Of a stretch of 12,589 bases of DNA, positions 3,627 through 11,857 are shown in pieces. The notes below the pieces were generated by a model. It saw only the letters and a list, made by a program, of their open reading frames with translations. It was not told where the DNA came from and ran no database searches. This DNA comes from a virus. Made by a program: the position numbers and the translations under genes. Location of the stretch: UHGV virus genome UHGV-0247912; one strand, 5' to 3'. The first letter of the stretch is position 1; each line of letters opens with the position of its first letter.

Positions 3627-5042
3627 TTAAAAAGATGCGTTATTCTGATTGTTTCGTTGGTTAAATCGGCTTGTGCGATGATTCATGGACTGAATACATG
3701 CAGACGCTGCGCGGGCCTGGTCACAAGGGAGGATATTGCCGTTGTCATCAAACCGCTGGTAAACAGTGCCAGTTTTCCCGTGACGGTTTTTAGATACAAT
3801 TATTTCCATATATTCGCGTGCTACAGACTGTTCATCGTAGTAACCATCGCGGTACACCATGATGATCCTGTCTGCATCTTGCTCAAGGTTCCCTGAATCA
3901 CGAAGATCAGAATTGTTAGGACGCTTGTTCGGGCGCTCCTCAACGCGGCGGGACAACTGCGCCAGCGCCAACACTGGTACGCGCAATTCTTTCGCCATCA
4001 TCTTCAACGACCACGACAATTGCCCTACAGCGAGATCGTGACGTTCGGCCTTAGCCAGCTTCATCAACCCTATGTAGTCAATCATTACCATACCCATGCT
4101 GGGGTGTTCCTGTTTCATCCGTTCTACGGTGGCGCGCATTTCCTCAACCGTTAACTGCGAAGCGTCAACGATCCACACATCAAGGTTAGCAAGTGCGCTC
4201 ATTCCCTGGCCGACATGCGCCCAACCATCATCATCAAGTTTTACCGGATTGCGCAGGCAGTCAGTTGATAAATTACCAGCGCCAGCGATGGCACGTTCGG
4301 TCATCTGATCGAGTGACATCTCAAGCGTGAAGAACAAAACGCCAACACGCTGATCCTTGCTGCCAGGGTAAGGGCATTCAGCAGCAGCGCGGGCAATTGC
4401 CAGCGCCAACGCAGATTTACCAGACCCAGGACGTCCGGCGAGAAGCACCAAATCAGTAGCGTTAATGCCGCCTAACATTTCGTCGAGTGGTTCTATCCCC
4501 GTTTTGATGTTGTCAGAATTGACACCGCATTCCATGCGTTTGCTTAACACCTCCGTGTATTCCTGTACCGCATCGCGCAACAACACCGGAATGATCTTGT
4601 CTTTCGTTACCTTTAATTTTGAATACCGGGAATCAAAATCCTTCATCGTTTCTTTGACTACTTCAAGCGTCCCCGTTTCCAGTTTGTAGCGCATATCGTC
4701 GATGAGTTCCAACATCTGCCGCCGCTGGTGCTCTTCACGTAGTAGCTGTGCGTATCCCTTCAGGTTGGCAGCAGAAGGACACGATCGCGCCGTTTGCATC
4801 AGTGGTACAAAGTTTTCATTGCCAATCTCATCGCCAACCAATAACGCGTCTATAAGATTTCTGTTTCTGGCTTGCGCCCGGATAACTTCAAACGCACGTT
4901 TATAAAGCGGGATCGTGAACACTTCAGGATCAAGCGTGGCGAGAACATCTTGCGCGTTAGGAGTAAGGCCACCCAACAACAGCCCGCCGATAACTGACGC
5001 CTCACGTTCCTGCCGTAGTGAGTTTATTTGCTCAGTTACCAT
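3627..5042 (-). CDS. replicative DNA helicase, DnaB family
   Basis: 471 aa; Walker A GRPGSGKS, DnaB-type motifs (FFTLEMS, IIVSKNRHGKTG, RFDDNG); RBS GGAGGAAA 8 nt before the ATG at 5042. C-terminal tail is longer than in E. coli DnaB. Confidence 0.9.
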   Translation of the reverse strand: MVTEQINSLRQEREASVIGGLLLGGLTPNAQDVLATLDPEVFTIPLYKRAFEVIRAQARNRNLIDALLVGDEIGNENFVPLMQTARSCPSAANLKGYAQLLREEHQRRQMLELIDDMRYKLETGTLEVVKETMKDFDSRYSKLKVTKDKIIPVLLRDAVQEYTEVLSKRMECGVNSDNIKTGIEPLDEMLGGINATDLVLLAGRPGSGKSALALAIARAAAECPYPGSKDQRVGVLFFTLEMSLDQMTERAIAGAGNLSTDCLRNPVKLDDDGWAHVGQGMSALANLDVWIVDASQLTVEEMRATVERMKQEHPSMGMVMIDYIGLMKLAKAERHDLAVGQLSWSLKMMAKELRVPVLALAQLSRRVEERPNKRPNNSDLRDSGNLEQDADRIIMVYRDGYYDEQSVAREYMEIIVSKNRHGKTGTVYQRFDDNGNILPCDQARAASACIQSMNHRTSRFNQRNNQNNASF

Positions 5043-5060
5043 TATGTTATTTCCTCCGGT

Positions 5061-6179
5061 TTACAAAATGGAAAATTCAGGGTAATAAACAAAGCGCCCG
5101 ATCTCTCCATGATCCTGGCTGTAAATAATAACCGCCGCCAGGCGACGCGACCGCCAGCCGCCATTAGTCGAATAGGCATCCTTACCCGCTAACGTGCCGT
5201 GATACTCAACAACGCCAAGCGATGACTCGATCAGCCGTTGATGATGCCAGTGCCCGCAGTGGGCGTAAACAGCAGCAGACTTGCCGAAATCCTCGCGCCA
5301 GTCAGCTACGCAAGCAGACAATAAATTTTCTGGCTTTTTGATAGTGTGCCCGTGGTGGTAAGCAAGAAATGTTTTGCCGTACTGTGTGTGGTGGACGATA
5401 GCAGGGGACACATCAACCGTCACGCGCGGTTCATCTTCGTAAAAAGCCGCCAGCGCCGCACGTAGCCAAATCATGCCTGACTGATCGTGATTGCCTGATA
5501 ACACCTGGATTTCAACATCTTTATGATTTAACAACATCTTTCCTACCGCCCGCCGTACAGACCGGATCGCCACATAAACAAGTTTTGCGTAGCGACTATC
5601 CTGATCAAGAATATGCCCGCTTGTTGGCGTAACCGGGACCATACCATCAGAATGAAGCAGGTCACCACCGAGAAGTAAGACGGCTTTTTCAGACATCGGA
5701 GCAGCGCCAACGGCATAATCAAAGAAGTTATTTAGCACGCGTTCAGCGATCCCAGTGTCGTAGCTCTCGCCGCATTCAGCTTTATGGGCAAGCGCCCCGA
5801 TATGCAGATCAAACACAGGATAAAGGGCCAGGCTTTTTTGAAAATCAATTTCAGGCACTGGCACAGCCTCCGCGCGTGGTATTTCATCAGTGAAAGCGTC
5901 GCGGGCCGCTTCCATTAGCTGTTCCATTTCTTCGCGGTCACGGGCTGTTTTAATCCAGCGCATGATAACATTGCCGTTCTTATCCACTAGCAACGACTCA
6001 CCATTGACGCCAAAACCAGGCGCGCGGCGTGTTGATAATAAACCCCGTTTCGCCAGTTTTGCGCCCAGGCGTTCGACATTGCGTTTAGACATGCCGTACT
6101 TTTCAGCGATCTGTTTGTACGTTAATCCGTTGTTATATTCAGCGATCAATTGCTCATCACTGATTTTTCTTTGCGACAT
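5061..6179 (-). CDS. HTH domain + calcineurin-like metallophosphoesterase domain protein (372 aa)
   Basis: ATG at 6179 with GGAGGG RBS (the track start at 6203 is an alternative start codon). N-terminal HTH (LTYKQIAEKYGMSKRNVERLGAKLAKRGLL); phosphoesterase-type motifs FDLH, GGDLLHSDG, GNHD, HHGH, GHWHH. Confidence 0.7.
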   Translation of the reverse strand: MSQRKISDEQLIAEYNNGLTYKQIAEKYGMSKRNVERLGAKLAKRGLLSTRRAPGFGVNGESLLVDKNGNVIMRWIKTARDREEMEQLMEAARDAFTDEIPRAEAVPVPEIDFQKSLALYPVFDLHIGALAHKAECGESYDTGIAERVLNNFFDYAVGAAPMSEKAVLLLGGDLLHSDGMVPVTPTSGHILDQDSRYAKLVYVAIRSVRRAVGKMLLNHKDVEIQVLSGNHDQSGMIWLRAALAAFYEDEPRVTVDVSPAIVHHTQYGKTFLAYHHGHTIKKPENLLSACVADWREDFGKSAAVYAHCGHWHHQRLIESSLGVVEYHGTLAGKDAYSTNGGWRSRRLAAVIIYSQDHGEIGRFVYYPEFSIL

Positions 6180-6212
6180 AATGTTAATCCCTCCAGTTAA
6201 CAAAATGTATAC

Positions 6213-6944
6213 CTACTTACACGCAAAAAGTTCAGACACCCAAAGTTGACCCTTAGCAGTAAATAGTGATTGGACGTAACCTCCAGCCGAACATTTTACC
6301 ACTCCATAGCCTTTGTCTACGAACCACTGCTTGAACATACGCCCGCCGCGCTTAATTCTCGTATCGTACACGTCAACCTGTTCAAGTTTTTTGTTGAGTT
6401 GCGTAGCAGTCATACCCAAAGGCTTGGCAACCTGTGTAGCGTTGCGATGCTGTTCGTTTCTTACAATCGCATCACAGACAGCCGCTTTCGGTGCTAATTC
6501 CTTATTTTCCAGCGCCAGACGATCAATTTCTTTCTGTGCTAATAGTTTTTGTTCAACCTCATCAGCCCATGCGCGAGCCGCCGCCACCGGATCAGTGAAA
6601 TCCGGCAAAGCTGGCTGCCGTACCTGTTTTTCGAGTTCCTGCCAGCGATCGACAAGTCGCGCCGTAAATTCAGGGCAGTTTTGAGCAACGACAATTATAC
6701 TATCTCGCTTGCCCTGCTCGCCTTCAAAAACGTAGGCCTTATCTTTTACCTTGAATCCTAAGTTATTGATTCTTTCGAGAAACTGCAATGCAGGACGCCG
6801 GATTACACCTTTATCAGCAAGGCGTTCTATAGAAACAAGCATGTTATCGTGACGGAACTTATTAACTCCGTTCCACTTATTTAGAAAATCAACGATCTCA
6901 ATACTGTTCATCTTAACAGCATCAAACACCATTAATTCAGACAT
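6213..6944 (-). CDS. rha: Rha-family phage regulatory protein / antirepressor-like (Rha N-terminal domain + ANT/KilAC-like C-terminal domain)
   Basis: ATG at 6944 with GGAG RBS. N-terminus has SIEIVDFLNKWNGVNKFRHDNMLVSIERL (the RHDN signature of Rha); C-terminus has ATQVAKPLGMTATQLNKKLEQVDVYDTRIKRGGRMFKQWFVDKGYG. Confidence 0.7.
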   Translation of the reverse strand: MSELMVFDAVKMNSIEIVDFLNKWNGVNKFRHDNMLVSIERLADKGVIRRPALQFLERINNLGFKVKDKAYVFEGEQGKRDSIIVVAQNCPEFTARLVDRWQELEKQVRQPALPDFTDPVAAARAWADEVEQKLLAQKEIDRLALENKELAPKAAVCDAIVRNEQHRNATQVAKPLGMTATQLNKKLEQVDVYDTRIKRGGRMFKQWFVDKGYGVVKCSAGGYVQSLFTAKGQLWVSELFACK

Positions 6945-7076
6945 TGTAATTTCTCCGTAAAACGCGCTACAACGCAAAAATCCCACCGCGTAACCCGTTT
7001 GCACAGGTTGCAGTGTCTTATTGCGTTATAGACGCTCTCAGGTGGCTAATTTTTGATTTACAGGATGGTATGAAGG

Positions 7077-7178
7077 TTATAGATTGACCAGAAGGAACAA
7101 ACCGCCGAACAAAGCGACGTTAACGGCGATTGCAGCAGCGATGGCAAAAGCCAGGGCAAAAACGTGTTTACCGTCCAT
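7077..7178 (-). CDS. small hydrophobic single-helix peptide (33 aa)
   Basis: MDGKHVFALAFAIAAAIAVNVALFGGLFLLVNL; strong RBS GAGAGGA about 8 nt before the ATG at 7178; hand-translated codon by codon. It is the C-terminal part of track ORF 7077..7439. Confidence 0.45.
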   Translation of the reverse strand: MDGKHVFALAFAIAAAIAVNVALFGGLFLLVNL

Positions 7179-7311
7179 TTTGAAATCCTCTCTAAAACGC
7201 TCTCTAACGAGATAAATAGCTAAAGGTATGCAAGTGTAGCACTCAATGCTTTTTAGCTCGCTGGCGAGCTTGTTTTGCGGGTAATTTTGTGTTTTTGCGG
7301 ATCGTGTTTGG

Positions 7312-8364
7312 TCAAAGAGCGCCACATCGTGTATCACGTAGCGTTTTTGGTTTAAGCAGGAAATCAAGTGTCGCAGTGAAGCCATCGCCGAAGTAAAAAT
7401 CTGAAGCATTGTTTTTGAACGTTTCAAAGTAGGCGACAAAGCCGTTAATGCTTTTGTCTTTCAGGTAGTCAGTGAACGCATAAATCTTGCGTTCAAGATC
7501 CCGATCCAGTTCGGCAGGTGGCAACATGCCATCAAACGTGCTGTTAAATGCCTCCACTACGTCGGCAGCGTTTGCAGTGGCTGACAGTTTGCGCCATTTT
7601 TCAGCATCAGCCAGATACCCATCAAATTTAGTCACCCGGCAAATGTTTATAGGCTTAGGTGTTCCACCACGGCTACGCCATTGCGTTAAAGCCCACTCAA
7701 TCACTAATGTGATCTCATCCTCCGTATACGCTTTACGTGTTTTTGTTTCTGTCAGTAGTTCTACGAATGGCTTAGCATCACGACATTTACACCCTGCCTT
7801 TTCGTTGTAGAAGTCAAGGCAACGCAATGCCGCATCGCTTATCTGAAAGTCACCATCCTGATTAACTTCTTTTCTTTTTATATTTTTCTTTTCTTCTTCT
7901 GTTTCTTTTTCTTCTTCTACTTCTATTTCTAATTCATGACCCTTTCCTGACCCGGTCATGACCCTATCATGACCCTTTGGTGTTGGATTGATTAACTTTT
8001 CTAATTTTAATTGCTCCTTCGCTGTGTTTATGGCGGCCCTGTAAGCGCTTTTAGAAGTCATTGATTGGTCCAGCCTTTTCAATAACTTTAAACAAGTTAT
8101 GTGGCCTTGAGAACATTCAAACAAACCAATTTCGATGAAGTATTTCATCATTTCTTCTATACGTTTTTCAGTAGATCCGACGTTTCGCGCAATGATTCTC
8201 GCGTCATGTCGTAGGTCAAAAGTCAGATTGTGCTGATCTACGTCATAAGTTATTAGTTCGAGGCAATACCAATAAAGCCCGTACCCTTCCAGGCCATAAT
8301 CTAACAAAACGTTTTGAAGTTTTTCATCGCGGTTCGCATCGCTGTCATGCTTAAACCACTTCAT
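7312..8364 (-). CDS. replication initiation protein / replisome organizer (O-like, phage replisome-organizer N-terminal domain type)
   Basis: 350 aa; N-terminus MKWFKHDSDANRDEKLQNVLLDYGLEGYGLYWYCLELI matches the replisome-organizer N-terminal domain pattern; acidic/basic linker; RBS GGAGGG; lies directly downstream of the immunity region. Confidence 0.8.
   Translation of the reverse strand: MKWFKHDSDANRDEKLQNVLLDYGLEGYGLYWYCLELITYDVDQHNLTFDLRHDARIIARNVGSTEKRIEEMMKYFIEIGLFECSQGHITCLKLLKRLDQSMTSKSAYRAAINTAKEQLKLEKLINPTPKGHDRVMTGSGKGHELEIEVEEEKETEEEKKNIKRKEVNQDGDFQISDAALRCLDFYNEKAGCKCRDAKPFVELLTETKTRKAYTEDEITLVIEWALTQWRSRGGTPKPINICRVTKFDGYLADAEKWRKLSATANAADVVEAFNSTFDGMLPPAELDRDLERKIYAFTDYLKDKSINGFVAYFETFKNNASDFYFGDGFTATLDFLLKPKTLRDTRCGAL
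7861..7933. repeat. AT-rich homopyrimidine/homopurine tract next to the iterons (candidate DNA unwinding element)
   Basis: About 70 bp almost entirely C/T on the plus strand (cttcttttctttttatatttttcttttcttcttctg...); encodes the Glu/Lys-rich linker of the initiator. Confidence 0.5.
7934..7977. repeat. four tandem 11-bp iterons (TCATGACCCTT-like), candidate origin of replication inside the initiator gene
   Basis: Plus strand units: 7934-7944 tcatgaccctt, 7945-7955 tcctgacccgg, 7956-7966 tcatgacccta, 7967-7977 tcatgaccctt. Units 1 and 4 are identical; the period is one helical turn. Confidence 0.6.
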
Positions 8365-8367
8365 AGA

Positions 8368-8625
8368 TCATCCCTCCGGCAACATCACTACATAGACATC
8401 ACTGAATGCATCAAGACGACAAACAAATCCTTTATCCATTAACGCGGCGAAGGCATCATGTACCGTATGAACAGGAAGTTCACACATTGCGGCTACTTCT
8501 TTGCGTGATGCATCATGTACCCGTCCTTTGTTATCTGCCTTTTCAGCCAGAGCCATTAAGACAAGTTTTTGAATCGGGCTATTAAGTTTTACGTTCCATG
8601 CTTTACTAATCATGTTTATACTCAT
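8368..8625 (-). CDS. small HTH / winged-helix DNA-binding protein (85 aa), first gene of the rightward-type operon (Cro/CII position)
   Basis: ATG at 8625 with AGGAG RBS (track ORF 8368..8703 starts earlier without an RBS); KLVLMALAEKADNKGRVHDASRKEVAAMCELPVHTVHDAFAALMDKGFV looks like a winged-helix DNA-binding domain. Confidence 0.55.
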   Translation of the reverse strand: MSINMISKAWNVKLNSPIQKLVLMALAEKADNKGRVHDASRKEVAAMCELPVHTVHDAFAALMDKGFVCRLDAFSDVYVVMLPEG

Positions 8626-8733
8626 CGCATTTTCTCCTATGGTTAGAGTGAACGCGCGGGCGGGCATCCCATTAGCATTAGATAGCAGTGACTGACCGCT
8701 CAACAGATCCCGCCGTTGCGTGATATTTGTTTT

Positions 8734-8767
8734 TCGCTTCGCAGCGACACCGGATTTTTAAAGAGCA
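8734..8767 (-). promoter_or_regulatory. candidate nutR-like site (boxA-like plus hairpin) in the minus-strand leader
   Basis: Minus strand reads TGCTCTTTAAAAAT (close to lambda nutR boxA CGCTCTTAAAAATT), then 6 nt, then hairpin UCGCU-GCGA-AGCGA. Confidence 0.3.
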
Positions 8768-8809
8768 TAAGGTAAGTGCCTTTTTGTGCCTTCCGTATCT
8801 TTTTCCTTG

Positions 8810-8929
8810 CGTCTTTGCAAGTATGGCCTTACCTTGTCTGCAAGTTTACAAAATGGAATTTTAAGATCAAGGCTTAAAATACACGTTTTGTGACTTGCAT
8901 CAAACTTTTTGAGGTTATAGGGTAGCGAC
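8810..8929. promoter_or_regulatory. divergent immunity control region (PR-like and PRM-like promoters, candidate operators)
   Basis: Lies between the divergent cI-type gene and the minus operon. Heptamer TGCAAGT at 8816-8822 and 8839-8845 and its complement ACTTGCA at 8893-8899. Possible minus-strand promoter TTGATG (8905-8900), 16-nt spacer, TATTTT (8881-8876). Exact operators and promoters are not resolved. Confidence 0.4.
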
Positions 8930-9577
8930 ATGAAAACAAAATGGTATGACTTAGCAAAGCAGCTCATGCGGGCGCAGGGCATGAGCCAGGATTCACTCGC
9001 GGATCGTATGGGGATAACTAAAGGCGGCCTGTCACACTGGCTGAACGGTCGCCGAGAGCCAAATCTTGAAGATATTGCGCGGATTATGCGCGAGCTTGGT
9101 CGTCGGCAGTTTACTGTTACACATGATGGCATGGTCATTGATGATTCTGTTTCTAATACACTTCAGGCCGTGCCGCCGCGTGATTTAGGTAGTTACCCGG
9201 TTATTGACTGGAAGGACACAGTAAACAATATGGATGACGCAAGGCGTTCAGCATTACGACACGTTACGACTAGCGTTATTTGTTCAGATGACAGTTACTG
9301 GCTGGTTGCCAAAGGTGAATCAATGAACGCGCCGCAGGGGTTGAGCATCCCGGCGGGGACGATGATACTTGTGGACCCGCACGCGCCAGCTATTGACGGC
9401 AAACTGGTTATAGCCCAGCTTGAGGAAGGGCAGATACCGACGTTTAAACAGTTGATTATTGATGGAGGTCAAAGGCTTTTACGTTCGCTCAATCCGCTGT
9501 ATCCGCCAATCCCTATGAATCCAGAATCAAAAATTATAGGCGTGGTGGTTGATGCGAAGATCGTAAACCTGCCATAA
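8930..9577 (+). CDS. cI: cI-type phage repressor (N-terminal HTH, C-terminal LexA/S24 autopeptidase domain)
   Basis: 215 aa; HTH GMSQDSLADRMGITKGGLSHWLNG; C-terminus GESMNAP...TFKQLIIDGGQRLLRSLNPLYPPIP parallels lambda cI ([24 protein letters not shown]) including the catalytic Ser and Lys. Confidence 0.9.
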   Translation: MKTKWYDLAKQLMRAQGMSQDSLADRMGITKGGLSHWLNGRREPNLEDIARIMRELGRRQFTVTHDGMVIDDSVSNTLQAVPPRDLGSYPVIDWKDTVNNMDDARRSALRHVTTSVICSDDSYWLVAKGESMNAPQGLSIPAGTMILVDPHAPAIDGKLVIAQLEEGQIPTFKQLIIDGGQRLLRSLNPLYPPIPMNPESKIIGVVVDAKIVNLP

Positions 9578-9582
9578 ACATT

Positions 9583-9607
9583 AGCCGCCGAATGGCGGCT
9601 TTTCTTT
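9583..9607 (+). terminator. rho-independent terminator after the repressor gene
   Basis: AGCCGCC-gaat-GGCGGCT (7-bp GC-rich stem) followed by TTTCTTT, 6 nt after the stop codon. Confidence 0.65.
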
Positions 9608-9699
9608 GCCTGGAAAACACCAAAACGTAAACAGAAAACGTTATTTATTATTTAAATATCAATGGCATATAAAATATTTTAAAAAAGTATACAAAATGG

Positions 9700-9728
9700 A
9701 TTGACTCGATGTTTTACGGGGCGTATAT
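9700..9728 (+). promoter_or_regulatory. strong sigma70-type promoter (PL-like), AT-rich upstream region
   Basis: -35 TTGACT (9700-9705), 17-nt spacer, -10 TATATT (9723-9728); very AT-rich 9640-9698 (UP-element-like). Confidence 0.5.
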
Positions 9729-9983
9729 TGCGAGTCAAAGGAAGGGCGCAGGTAACAAAAGCAACTTCCTGGCACTTTAAAAATCAGGCTTAACACCTTG
9801 TCAACCGTGGAGTAACTCCCCGATGGGGGACCGAAAGCGGCACTGATAACAAGGCGCATGGGGTGTTTAAAGCGTTACATCCCCCACGAAACCGCACGCA
9901 AGGCGACGAGTCAGCTTGCTTGGAGTGAGCAAGGTCACGCCGGGAACGGCGATGATTGCGGGATTAGTTGAAAGATGTTAAGC

Positions 9984-10021
9984 CGCTCATTAACAATCTG
10001 GTCAGCCGCTGGAAGTGCGGC
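9984..10021 (+). promoter_or_regulatory. candidate nutL site: boxA-like CGCTCATTAACAAT plus boxB-like hairpin
   Basis: CGCTCATTAACAAT (9984-9997) resembles boxA (CGCTCTTA / GCTCTTTAACAA); 7-nt spacer; hairpin GCCGC-UGGAAGU-GCGGC (10005-10021) with a purine-rich loop; sits just upstream of the N-like gene. Confidence 0.5.
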
Positions 10022-10077
10022 AATTAACGAAGATGATTTTTTATTAAGTATCATCAAGGATATACGGAGATCAGATT

Positions 10078-10368
10078 ATGAGCGTTACAATTATATATGG
10101 TAAATGTGATAGCAAAATGAATGCCAGGGAACGCAGAAGGATAAAAAGAGAAAACGAAAGAAAATCATCACCTGCAATCAATAAAACAGACAATGTGGAT
10201 AAAGCTATTCGATTTGCAAACGAGGAAAGATGCAAACCAAATAGCATTAAAGAACGTCGCAAAGGATCAGTAAAATGGTATACGGAAAATGAAAGCGGCA
10301 GCTACTACCACGCAACGCAACCACGCCATTTAGGGGAAAAACCCCTGGATAAAGTCCGCTACCATTAA
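10078..10368 (+). CDS. N: N-like transcription antitermination protein (arginine-rich motif)
   Basis: 96 aa; N-terminus MSVTIIYGKCDSKMNARERRRIKRENERK has an arginine-rich motif like lambda N (MDAQTRRRERRAEKQ) and, from memory, P22 gp24; first gene after the PL-like promoter and nut-like site; RBS GGAG 8 nt upstream. Confidence 0.7.
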   Translation: MSVTIIYGKCDSKMNARERRRIKRENERKSSPAINKTDNVDKAIRFANEERCKPNSIKERRKGSVKWYTENESGSYYHATQPRHLGEKPLDKVRYH

Positions 10369-10398
10369 TACAAAATGTAAACATCCGGAGGTGACATT

Positions 10399-10521
10399 AT
10401 GGTTATTCAGGCGCTTCAATTCAAACTGGCAGTAGCGGAAATGCTTCACGATGCCGAAATGTGGAGCGCCGCGAATAAAGCCTTATACATAGTGTTAACA
10501 GCACGGGAGATTAAATGGTGA
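10399..10521 (+). CDS. small hypothetical protein (40 aa), translationally coupled to erf (Arf-like position)
   Basis: Manual translation: MVIQALQFKLAVAEMLHDAEMWSAANKALYIVLTAREIKW. RBS GGAGGTGA before the ATG at 10399; its stop overlaps the erf start (ATGGTGA). Confidence 0.45.
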   Translation: MVIQALQFKLAVAEMLHDAEMWSAANKALYIVLTAREIKW

Positions 10522-11159: not shown

Positions 11160-11563
11160 TGAGTTTAAATTCAATCACGCTGGGCGGGAATATCGGTAAT
11201 GATATGGAGGTTCGCTACACACAAAACGGGAAAGCGATTGGTAGTTTTCCGTTAGCTGTAACGAATGGCTACGGCGATAATAAGCGGACAATGTGGGTCA
11301 CTTGCCTGGTATTTGGTGAGCGTGCGGAAAAATTAGCGCCACATATCCGCAAGGGTGGAAAAATAGTGGTAAGCGGTCGCCTGGATGTTCGGCAATATGA
11401 CCGGAACGACGGCACGAAGGGAACGGCGGTAGAAGTGGCGGTTAACGAATTTGAATTCATGAACGTTAACCAACAAGGCCAGCAGCAGAAAGCGCCTCCG
11501 CAGCAGCAGAATAATAACGGGAATAATCCGCCGATGGACTTTGATGACGATATCCCGTTTTGA
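11159..11563 (+). CDS. ssb: single-stranded DNA-binding protein (short phage SSB)
   Basis: 134 aa; OB-fold N-terminus (ITLGGNIGNDMEVRYTQNGKA...), Q/N/P-rich linker and acidic C-terminal tip DFDDDIPF; start overlaps the erf stop (TAATG). Confidence 0.9.
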   Translation: MSLNSITLGGNIGNDMEVRYTQNGKAIGSFPLAVTNGYGDNKRTMWVTCLVFGERAEKLAPHIRKGGKIVVSGRLDVRQYDRNDGTKGTAVEVAVNEFEFMNVNQQGQQQKAPPQQQNNNGNNPPMDFDDDIPF

Positions 11564-11578
11564 TCCAATAGGTTAGCG

Positions 11579-11857
11579 ATGGTTGATTATCTAAAACCGC
11601 CACCACCGCCACGAACAAAAGAGCAAGTATTAAAAGAAGCCCGTGATCAAATCGATCGCGGGCTTTTTTTATGCGGCACGGCAGCGGAACGGATGGCAAA
11701 AAGATTTAGTGACCTGTACGCAAAACAAATATGGTTCGACAACTGGCAGGCAAGTTTTTATCCGCTGCAAAGAAAACCGGATATGCACTGGCCTGAATAT
11801 GTCGATCCACGTATGCGCAAATATCGCGGGCGTATGGGCCAGGTCATTAACGATTAA
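11579..11857 (+). CDS. hypothetical protein (92 aa), proline tract near the N-terminus
   Basis: Continuous with the erf-ssb operon; stop 12 nt before the next gene; weak RBS. No family recognised. Confidence 0.45.
   Translation: MVDYLKPPPPPRTKEQVLKEARDQIDRGLFLCGTAAERMAKRFSDLYAKQIWFDNWQASFYPLQRKPDMHWPEYVDPRMRKYRGRMGQVIND

Follow-up and report, generated by a model that had tools for sequence, protein, structure and literature searches.

A recurrent 17-bp pseudo-palindrome as the probable operator of the CI-like repressor in an mEp021-like coliphage

In lambda, the repressor CI joins an HTH domain to an S24 self-cleaving domain and is encoded between two early promoters. Its operators at OR and OL are 17-bp pseudo-palindromes that lie near −16 and −41 of the early promoter and about 25 bp apart (OR2/OR1), with the terminal TTG of one site falling within the −35 element TTGACT, the arrangement of OR2 at PR, and one site at about −42 from the divergent maintenance promoter. 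The locus described here resembles lambda in these features as predicted from sequence, with a 25-bp spacing of sites at the rightward promoter, and its repressor gene likewise lies between two predicted early promoters. To our knowledge, repressor sites located inside operons of lambda-type systems have no established role. Cluster A mycobacteriophages carry repressor sites of another kind, the stoperators recognized by L5 gp71, which PMC9283540 describes as asymmetric 13-mers of one fixed orientation to which a non-CI repressor binds as a monomer. Phages of the mEpimmI group are non-lambdoid and Nus-dependent, and were as common as lambdoid phages in a human-faeces collection (PMC11893012). 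The mEp021 repressor Rep021 blocks infection by the whole immI phage group, and the repressor operators of the group were left undefined in that study (PMC11893012). The description of Erwinia phage Midgardsormr38, which has a related repressor, makes no mention of operators.

The DNA analyzed here (the window; 12,589 nt of virus genome UHGV-0247912) comes from a coliphage or prophage of the mEp021-like type (mEpimmI group): it shares ~89% identity with coliphage mEp021 and related phages, and over the immunity region it matches prophages of E. coli genomes at 99.8%. The gene map places on the minus strand a DnaB-type helicase (3630–5042), a 372-aa gene with weak N-terminal HTH matches (5064–6179; annotated in relatives as a metallophosphoesterase or DNA-repair exonuclease), an ANT/KilAC-like gene (6216–6953), a Lin1244-type replication gene (7315–8364), and a small HTH gene (8371–8631). 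On the plus strand, the CI-like repressor gene (8930–9577; Rep, 215 aa) precedes an N-like gp17 gene. Pfam assigns Rep, the orthologue of Rep021, an HTH_3 domain at residues 10–57 (E = 1.5e-12) and a Peptidase_S24 domain at residues 116–207 (E = 5.8e-19). No cro-like gene was seen adjoining the repressor, and the leftward operon does not begin with a Cro-type gene. The mEp021 GenBank record starts the repressor at 11218, and window positions 8930–9577 correspond to 11167–11814 of that record; the start 17 codons upstream, ATGAAAACAAAATGG (MKTKWYDLAK...), is backed by RefSeq prophages and by the Midgardsormr38, phage L, and ENT1 homologues.

Two further observations concern the replication region. 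The small HTH protein aligns by eye with the N-terminus of some relatives' replication initiators, and in one relative (L012) its gene is displaced downstream of the initiator gene. The minus-strand replication gene (7315–8364) contains the 9-mer CATGACCCT three times (7935–7943, 7957–7965, and 7968–7976), beside a related 9-mer, CCTGACCCG (7947–7955), and a 70-nt pyrimidine- and A/T-rich tract adjoins these repeats (region 7860–7978). The repeats look like origin iterons within an initiator gene, as in lambda O; the segment 7954–7974 is also among the terminator-like hairpins found by a scan.

Across this map, a pattern scan of the window located exact matches of the 15-mer GTWTACAAAATGGAW at 5059–5073, 8844–8858, and 9687–9701, with further copies carrying two mismatches at 6196 and 9221. 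The original prediction had placed the first two copies correctly and the third one nucleotide too far left, at 9686–9700; it had also counted six plus-strand copies and one minus-strand copy of the core octamer, and a recount of ACAAAATG gave seven and one. Enrichment against shuffled sequence, the check it proposed, was clear for both: five matches of GTWTACAAAATGGAW with at most two mismatches compare with 0.19 expected, and none of 200 dinucleotide shuffles gave five, while the eight copies of ACAAAATG compare with 0.99 expected on both strands and were never reached in shuffles. The concern that AT-rich composition could explain the motif did not hold up either, as a null of intergenic composition for the complete mEp021 genome leaves 15 intergenic copies of ACAAAATG against 0.67 expected and 8 strong matches to the position matrix described below against 0.19. 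The excess of motif copies is not due to AT-richness, and the recurrent 15-mer is a genuine, non-random feature. A strict symmetric 13-mer with at most two mismatches showed no excess in mEp021 (30 matches versus 29 under the null); a matrix captures the mEp sites better.

The 15-mer forms the core of a 17-bp pseudo-palindrome, (G/T)TWTAC(A/G)-N3-YGKAW. In keeping with the original prediction, which had looked to related phages for conservation, all copies are kept at equivalent positions in 13 relatives (88–99.8% identity); because these relatives are all at least about 88% identical, conservation by itself has limited power. At 5059, 6196, and 10366 the relatives retain the half-sites while the center flips. 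Upstream of the 372-aa gene, 46 loci yielded 32 sequence variants of the junction, the upstream flanks of which fall into several unrelated classes, with conservation beginning at about TATACA. In the alignment of these variants, the TATACA and TGTAAAC columns have low entropy, the three central bases read AAA, TTT, or TTC, and the bases separating the site from the Shine–Dalgarno sequence (SD) also vary; the A-tract center thus occurs in both orientations at one and the same junction. Conserved half-sites around a variable center point to a dimeric DNA-binding protein, and the pattern, as read from the alignment, is at odds with an RNA element and with passive hitch-hiking. The exact copies at 5059, 8844, and 9687 have a weak second half (TGGAW instead of TGTAT). 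Likeness to the consensus sequences of TyrR, OmpR, ArcA, PhoP, GalR, Fis, and IHF was considered and rejected owing to mismatched spacing or arrangement.

Comparison across phages indicates which protein may read the site. Four other phages have repressors with a Rep-like N-terminal domain, namely Erwinia Midgardsormr38, Salmonella L (c2), Klebsiella ST11-VIM1phi8.3, and Enterobacter ENT1, and their repressors have the Rep recognition helix GITKGGLSHWLNGRREP in common, in the form G(I/K)T(K/Q)G..(S/G)HWLN(G/A)RREP. Each of these phages carries three ATAC(A/G)-N3-(T/C)GTAT sites in the gap before the repressor gene, on the cro side where cro is annotated, and two or three more lie past the repressor gene (three of the four phages inspected). 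These inferred operators resemble those of the window in their core, which accompanies the same helix, and in the overlap of TGTAT/TGGAT-TGAC with a −35 element. Vibrio phage H8, with a different helix, has sites of the form ATTAC-N5-GTAAT instead. From phage to phage, the site changes with the recognition helix. A PDB sequence search with the repressor N-terminal domain returned generic lambda-like HTH proteins only and no informative DNA complex.

The symmetric matrix used throughout was built from 19 sites of these foreign phages only, and the window was scanned with it. The site at 10366 ranked first in the window (score 17.2), 9687 second (15.9), 8844 third (10.9; top 0.02% of positions), and 5059 fifth (9.4; top 0.04%); all three exact 15-mer sites lie within the top 0.04% of window positions, although the scores at 8844 and 5059 are merely moderate (9–11). 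Leave-one-out matrices recovered OL and OR only, in complete phage L and in 50.0 of the 50.5 kb of Midgardsormr38. Since a host factor would not follow repressor type over four host genera, the repressor is the best-supported candidate binder. The earlier proposal of a protein-binding site at both operator regions is thereby backed by comparative evidence; among the binders it named, the repressor is favored, and a Cro-like or 85-aa HTH protein and a host factor are disfavored. The HTH assignment of the small protein stands, with its size revised to 87 aa by a re-chosen start. In 5,426 E. coli genomes, the replication module and the repressor were each found in 35; every replication-module accession listed is also in the repressor list, and no heteroimmune sibling was seen among them.

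Turning to the promoters, the predicted rightward early promoter (plus strand, 9701–9729; TTGACT-17-TATATT) agrees with 10 of 12 consensus positions and is the top sigma-70 match within 4900–10500. The exact-copy site GTATACAAAATGGATTG (9687–9703), centered at about −41, supplies with its final 3 nt the first 3 nt of the −35 TTGACT, in a geometry like that of phage L TGTATTGACT, and is invariant in the 13 annotated relatives (L001–L013). A partner operator with a G-rich center, TTTTACGGGGCGTATAT (9712–9728), was found by half-site scoring 25 bp away, over the −10 TATATT and centered at about −16; it ranks third in the window when half-sites alone are scored (11.9), and its half-sites YAC(A/G) and CGTAT are retained in 13 of 13 relatives while the adjoining spacer bases vary. 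Adjacent sites in relatives are 25–26 bp apart. Within the long untranslated leader that runs from this promoter to the gp17 gene lies a 13-nt inverted repeat (9787–9799 and 9972–9984; 92% complementary, arms 172 nt apart), which may form a long-range RNA structure around nutR1.

The predicted leftward early promoter (minus strand, 8843–8870) comprises the −35 TTGATC (8870–8865), a 16-nt spacer, and the −10 TAAACT (8848–8843). All relatives have TTGAYC as the −35; the promoter agrees with the consensus at 8 of 12 positions, below the sigma-70 scan threshold, and its activity is putative. Operator O1, GTTTACAAAATGGAATT (8844–8860), contains an exact 15-mer and lies over the spacer and −10, centered at about −16. 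The O1 part is kept in the 13 relatives as GCAAGTTTACA(A/G)AATGG, while the remaining, distal spacer bases vary. Operator O2, on the minus strand AGTCACAAAACGTGTATTT (8877–8895, in a register ambiguous by 2 nt within the window), is the mirror image of O1 and one arm of a 27-nt imperfect palindrome (8839–8865 and 8873–8899); relatives keep it as AAATAC(G/A)TTTTGTGACT, and the mEp021 copy scores 13.1 with the matrix. The two left operator sites are 33–35 bp apart, versus 24–26 bp between sites elsewhere. O2 is centered about −50 from the leftward promoter and about −42 from a tentative repressor-maintenance promoter (plus strand, 8895–8921; TTGCAT-15-TATAGG), which is predicted from sequence only. 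This candidate has a short, 15-nt spacer, and no SD precedes the ATG at 8930; it is a weak candidate for a maintenance promoter that would give a nearly leaderless rep mRNA. With sites over the −10 or −35 on each side, both predicted early promoters therefore appear to have repressor-type sites where binding would repress them.

Downstream of the predicted leftward promoter lies a nutL-like element (minus strand, 8734–8767), with boxA TGCTCTTTA at plus-strand coordinates 8759–8767 and a 5-bp stem with a GCGA loop at 8734–8747. A near-identical boxA in mEp021 follows an operator-bearing promoter-like sequence before nutR2.

From the sequence and conservation of the sites, their positions relative to the predicted promoters, and their co-occurrence with the repressor type, we infer binding, repression, and autoactivation as follows. 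The 17-bp dyad is probably the operator for a dimer of the CI-like repressor (8930–9577), with a role that includes shut-off of the early promoters. In a lysogen, repressor on 8844–8860 would cover the −10 of the leftward early promoter, and repressor on 9687–9703 and 9712–9728 would cover the rightward −35 and −10; the occupied operators would exclude RNA polymerase and so keep the replication operon and the N-like antiterminator operon off. Repressor at 8877–8895, at about −42, could boost its own production, in the manner of lambda CI at OR2. The sites at 5059, 6196, and 10366 might be auxiliary sites for the repressor, where it would form a roadblock to read-through or anchor a loop, which is the least certain step. 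Most likely, the operator belongs to an ordinary phage switch of the CI-like repressor, of a well-known kind. This reading yields a testable operator sequence and site map for the mEpimmI repressor, together with a proposed consensus for the operators of a broader repressor clade, that of Salmonella phage L included.

The three auxiliary candidates are promoter-less. The first, GTTTACAAAATGGAAAA (5059–5075), is an exact 15-mer copy that includes the stop codon of the preceding 372-aa gene and lies 1 nt upstream of the helicase SD; it is conserved across 37 loci (19 sequence variants), and no convincing −35/−10 was found there, the −10-like hexamer being TAAACC. The second, GTTAACAAAATGTATAC (6196–6212), is a two-mismatch copy that follows the stop codon of the ANT/KilAC-like gene and precedes the SD of the 372-aa HTH gene. 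The third, TAATACAAAATGTAAAC (10366–10382), emerged from the matrix scan, occupies the gap from the stop codon of the N-like gp17 gene to the SD of the small gene after it, and is conserved in 43 loci. Each is 0–4 nt upstream of an SD and inside an operon, a placement just upstream of gene starts that would be moderately unusual for an operator. Inspection by eye and a sigma-70 scan gave no convincing internal promoter at the three junctions, and their predicted RNA folds are no better than those of shuffles (z −0.5 to +0.5). Tentatively, each junction also has a weak motif-like site over the start codon, at 5035–5051 (helicase), 6172–6188, and 10390–10406; at all three, this site is 24 bp center-to-center from the stronger one (counted by hand), and each ranks just within the top ~1% of window positions by matrix. 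The 24-bp pairing could, tentatively, reflect shared ancestry of the junction sequences.

In an alternative account, these three copies are not working operators and belong instead to a translation-initiation or module-boundary cassette (site, SD, and RACATWATG) that was spread by recombination and kept for its SD, the copies being at most homology patches for gene shuffling. The three junctions do have ~35 nt in common, including the SD and start context; the left edge of the site is roughly where variable genes (ANT/KilAC, BRO, Rha, DUF559, HNH) stop; and the −10-like hexamers of the junctions are without key bases and hence not promoters. Retention of the half-sites while the center flips and the site-to-SD bases vary, however, indicates selection on the dyad and not hitch-hiking; the 10366 copy, moreover, is the best match in the window to foreign-phage operators, and the site has decayed in a few relatives, so that it is separable from the SD. 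We regard the cassette as possible but distinctly the less probable account; auxiliary repressor binding remains the preferred reading of these copies. The operator-plus-SD cassettes mark points of variable-gene swapping. The gene upstream of the 372-aa gene (6213–6953) is a swap point, occupied among L001–L050 by ANT/KilAC, BRO, Rha, DUF559, or zinc-ribbon genes, or by nothing, with similarity resuming near the left end of the operator-like site at 6196–6212; in mEp021 and mEp515, an HNH endonuclease gene precedes the helicase.

Weaker copies occur in or near coding DNA, at 8932–8948 (GAAAACAAAATGGTATG, over rep codons 2–7) and, from pattern and matrix scans, at 9221–9237 and 2139–2155; their conservation is confounded by coding constraint, and we claim no function for them. 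The sequence at 2139–2155 (TTATACAAAATGCCTGT) and a further weaker motif-like sequence at 1321–1348 (TTATCCATTATTTATCC / TTATCCCCCGTGTATTC) lie near small genes at the integrase end, and the first is conserved in mEp021.

A second alternative accepts a phage-encoded binder other than Rep: the 87-aa HTH protein, the N-terminal HTH of the 372-aa protein, or an unrecognized Cro. Lambda Cro uses the same operators as CI, the 372-aa HTH gene has the motif immediately on either side, and residues 10–65 of the 372-aa protein give sub-threshold HTH matches. The small HTH protein, which has no Pfam match, was compared with the equivalent genes in L001–L013 and falls into at least three divergent classes, differing even in the presumed DNA-reading region, among relatives that keep the motif; because the protein varies while the motif, like the repressor, is constant, it is an unlikely binder. 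For the 372-aa protein, distant homologues (59–67% identity) from IMG/VR, in Klebsiella-type phages of about 50 kb, showed on informal inspection nothing like the motif over the 70 nt that precede the gene start, which counts against that protein as binder and makes these homologues unusable for co-variation. The motif also tracks the CI-type helix in phages that have neither HTH gene. Overall, a different phage protein seems improbable, and Rep remains the favored binder.

Still less credible is binding by a host protein, be it a DNA-bending factor or a global regulator (Fis or IHF, for example). The motif lies in A/T-rich regulatory DNA and partly resembles the Fis consensus, GNNYAWWWWWTRNNC, but positions beyond that consensus are invariant, strong sites in the foreign-phage relatives occur at OL and OR only, and the motif changes with the repressor helix (as in H8) across hosts of four genera. 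Similarly remote is a by-product of promoter −10 context, of an RNA element at ribosome-binding sites, or of A/T-rich intergenic composition, to which the doubling of the right half (TG-TAWAYT) as a −10 hexamer at several promoters and the abutment of three copies on SDs might point, but against which stand the 9687 copy upstream of a −35 in opposite orientation, the lack of −11A or −7T in the junction copies, junction folds like those of shuffles together with a flipping center, and the matched null of 0.19 against the 8 mEp021 matrix sites observed.

Sites of this type are not confined to the immunity region in mEp021. Across that complete genome, the 15-mer with at most two mismatches occurs 13 times, and 11 of these copies are intergenic in a genome with 12% intergenic DNA (p = 6e-9). 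All 8 strong matrix sites are intergenic, against 0.19–0.77 expected, and only one of the 8 is at an immunity-region promoter. In several matches, as judged by eye, a TTG-type −35 is followed 16 nt downstream by a −10-like hexamer made up by the right half of the site; these promoter-like matches lie before gp26, before the nutR2 boxA, and in late-region divergent intergenic DNA beside accessory genes. Leave-one-out matrix scans of phage L and Midgardsormr38 found no such dispersed strong sites, so the spread is a feature of the mEp021-type group. Speculatively, and we would rate this as somewhat unlikely, the mEp021-type CI-type repressor silences the prophage at many points, through operators close before the SDs of the helicase gene, the 372-aa HTH gene, and the gene that follows the N-like antiterminator, in promoter-like DNA ahead of a third nut site, and in divergent late-region intergenic DNA beside accessory genes. 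If so, the weak start-codon sites would pair with the SD-proximal operators 24 bp away, and silencing would in part block transcription entering from variable upstream genes. The dispersed copies may show how a CI-type repressor keeps control of a mosaic genome in which there are several early promoters and three nut sites.

Set against the described systems, the locus departs from lambda in its site sequence, in a repressor without an adjacent cro gene, in a left region with two sites 33–35 bp apart and not three, and in the extra sites inside operons and across the genome. Compared with phage L, Midgardsormr38, ST11-VIM1phi8.3, and ENT1, many mEp copies differ in combining GTTTACA with a weak TGGAW half; in phage L and Midgardsormr38 the strong sites are confined to OL and OR, whereas those of mEp021-type phages are mostly elsewhere. 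Like the stoperators of cluster A mycobacteriophages, repressor-type sites occur here both at the early promoter and in many intra-operon intergenic gaps. Unlike stoperators, these are pseudo-palindromes and not asymmetric, one-orientation sites; they are dyads with a flipping center, and far fewer in number. Should many-point silencing prove true, it would constitute a dyad-site, enterobacterial counterpart of the mycobacteriophage stoperators.
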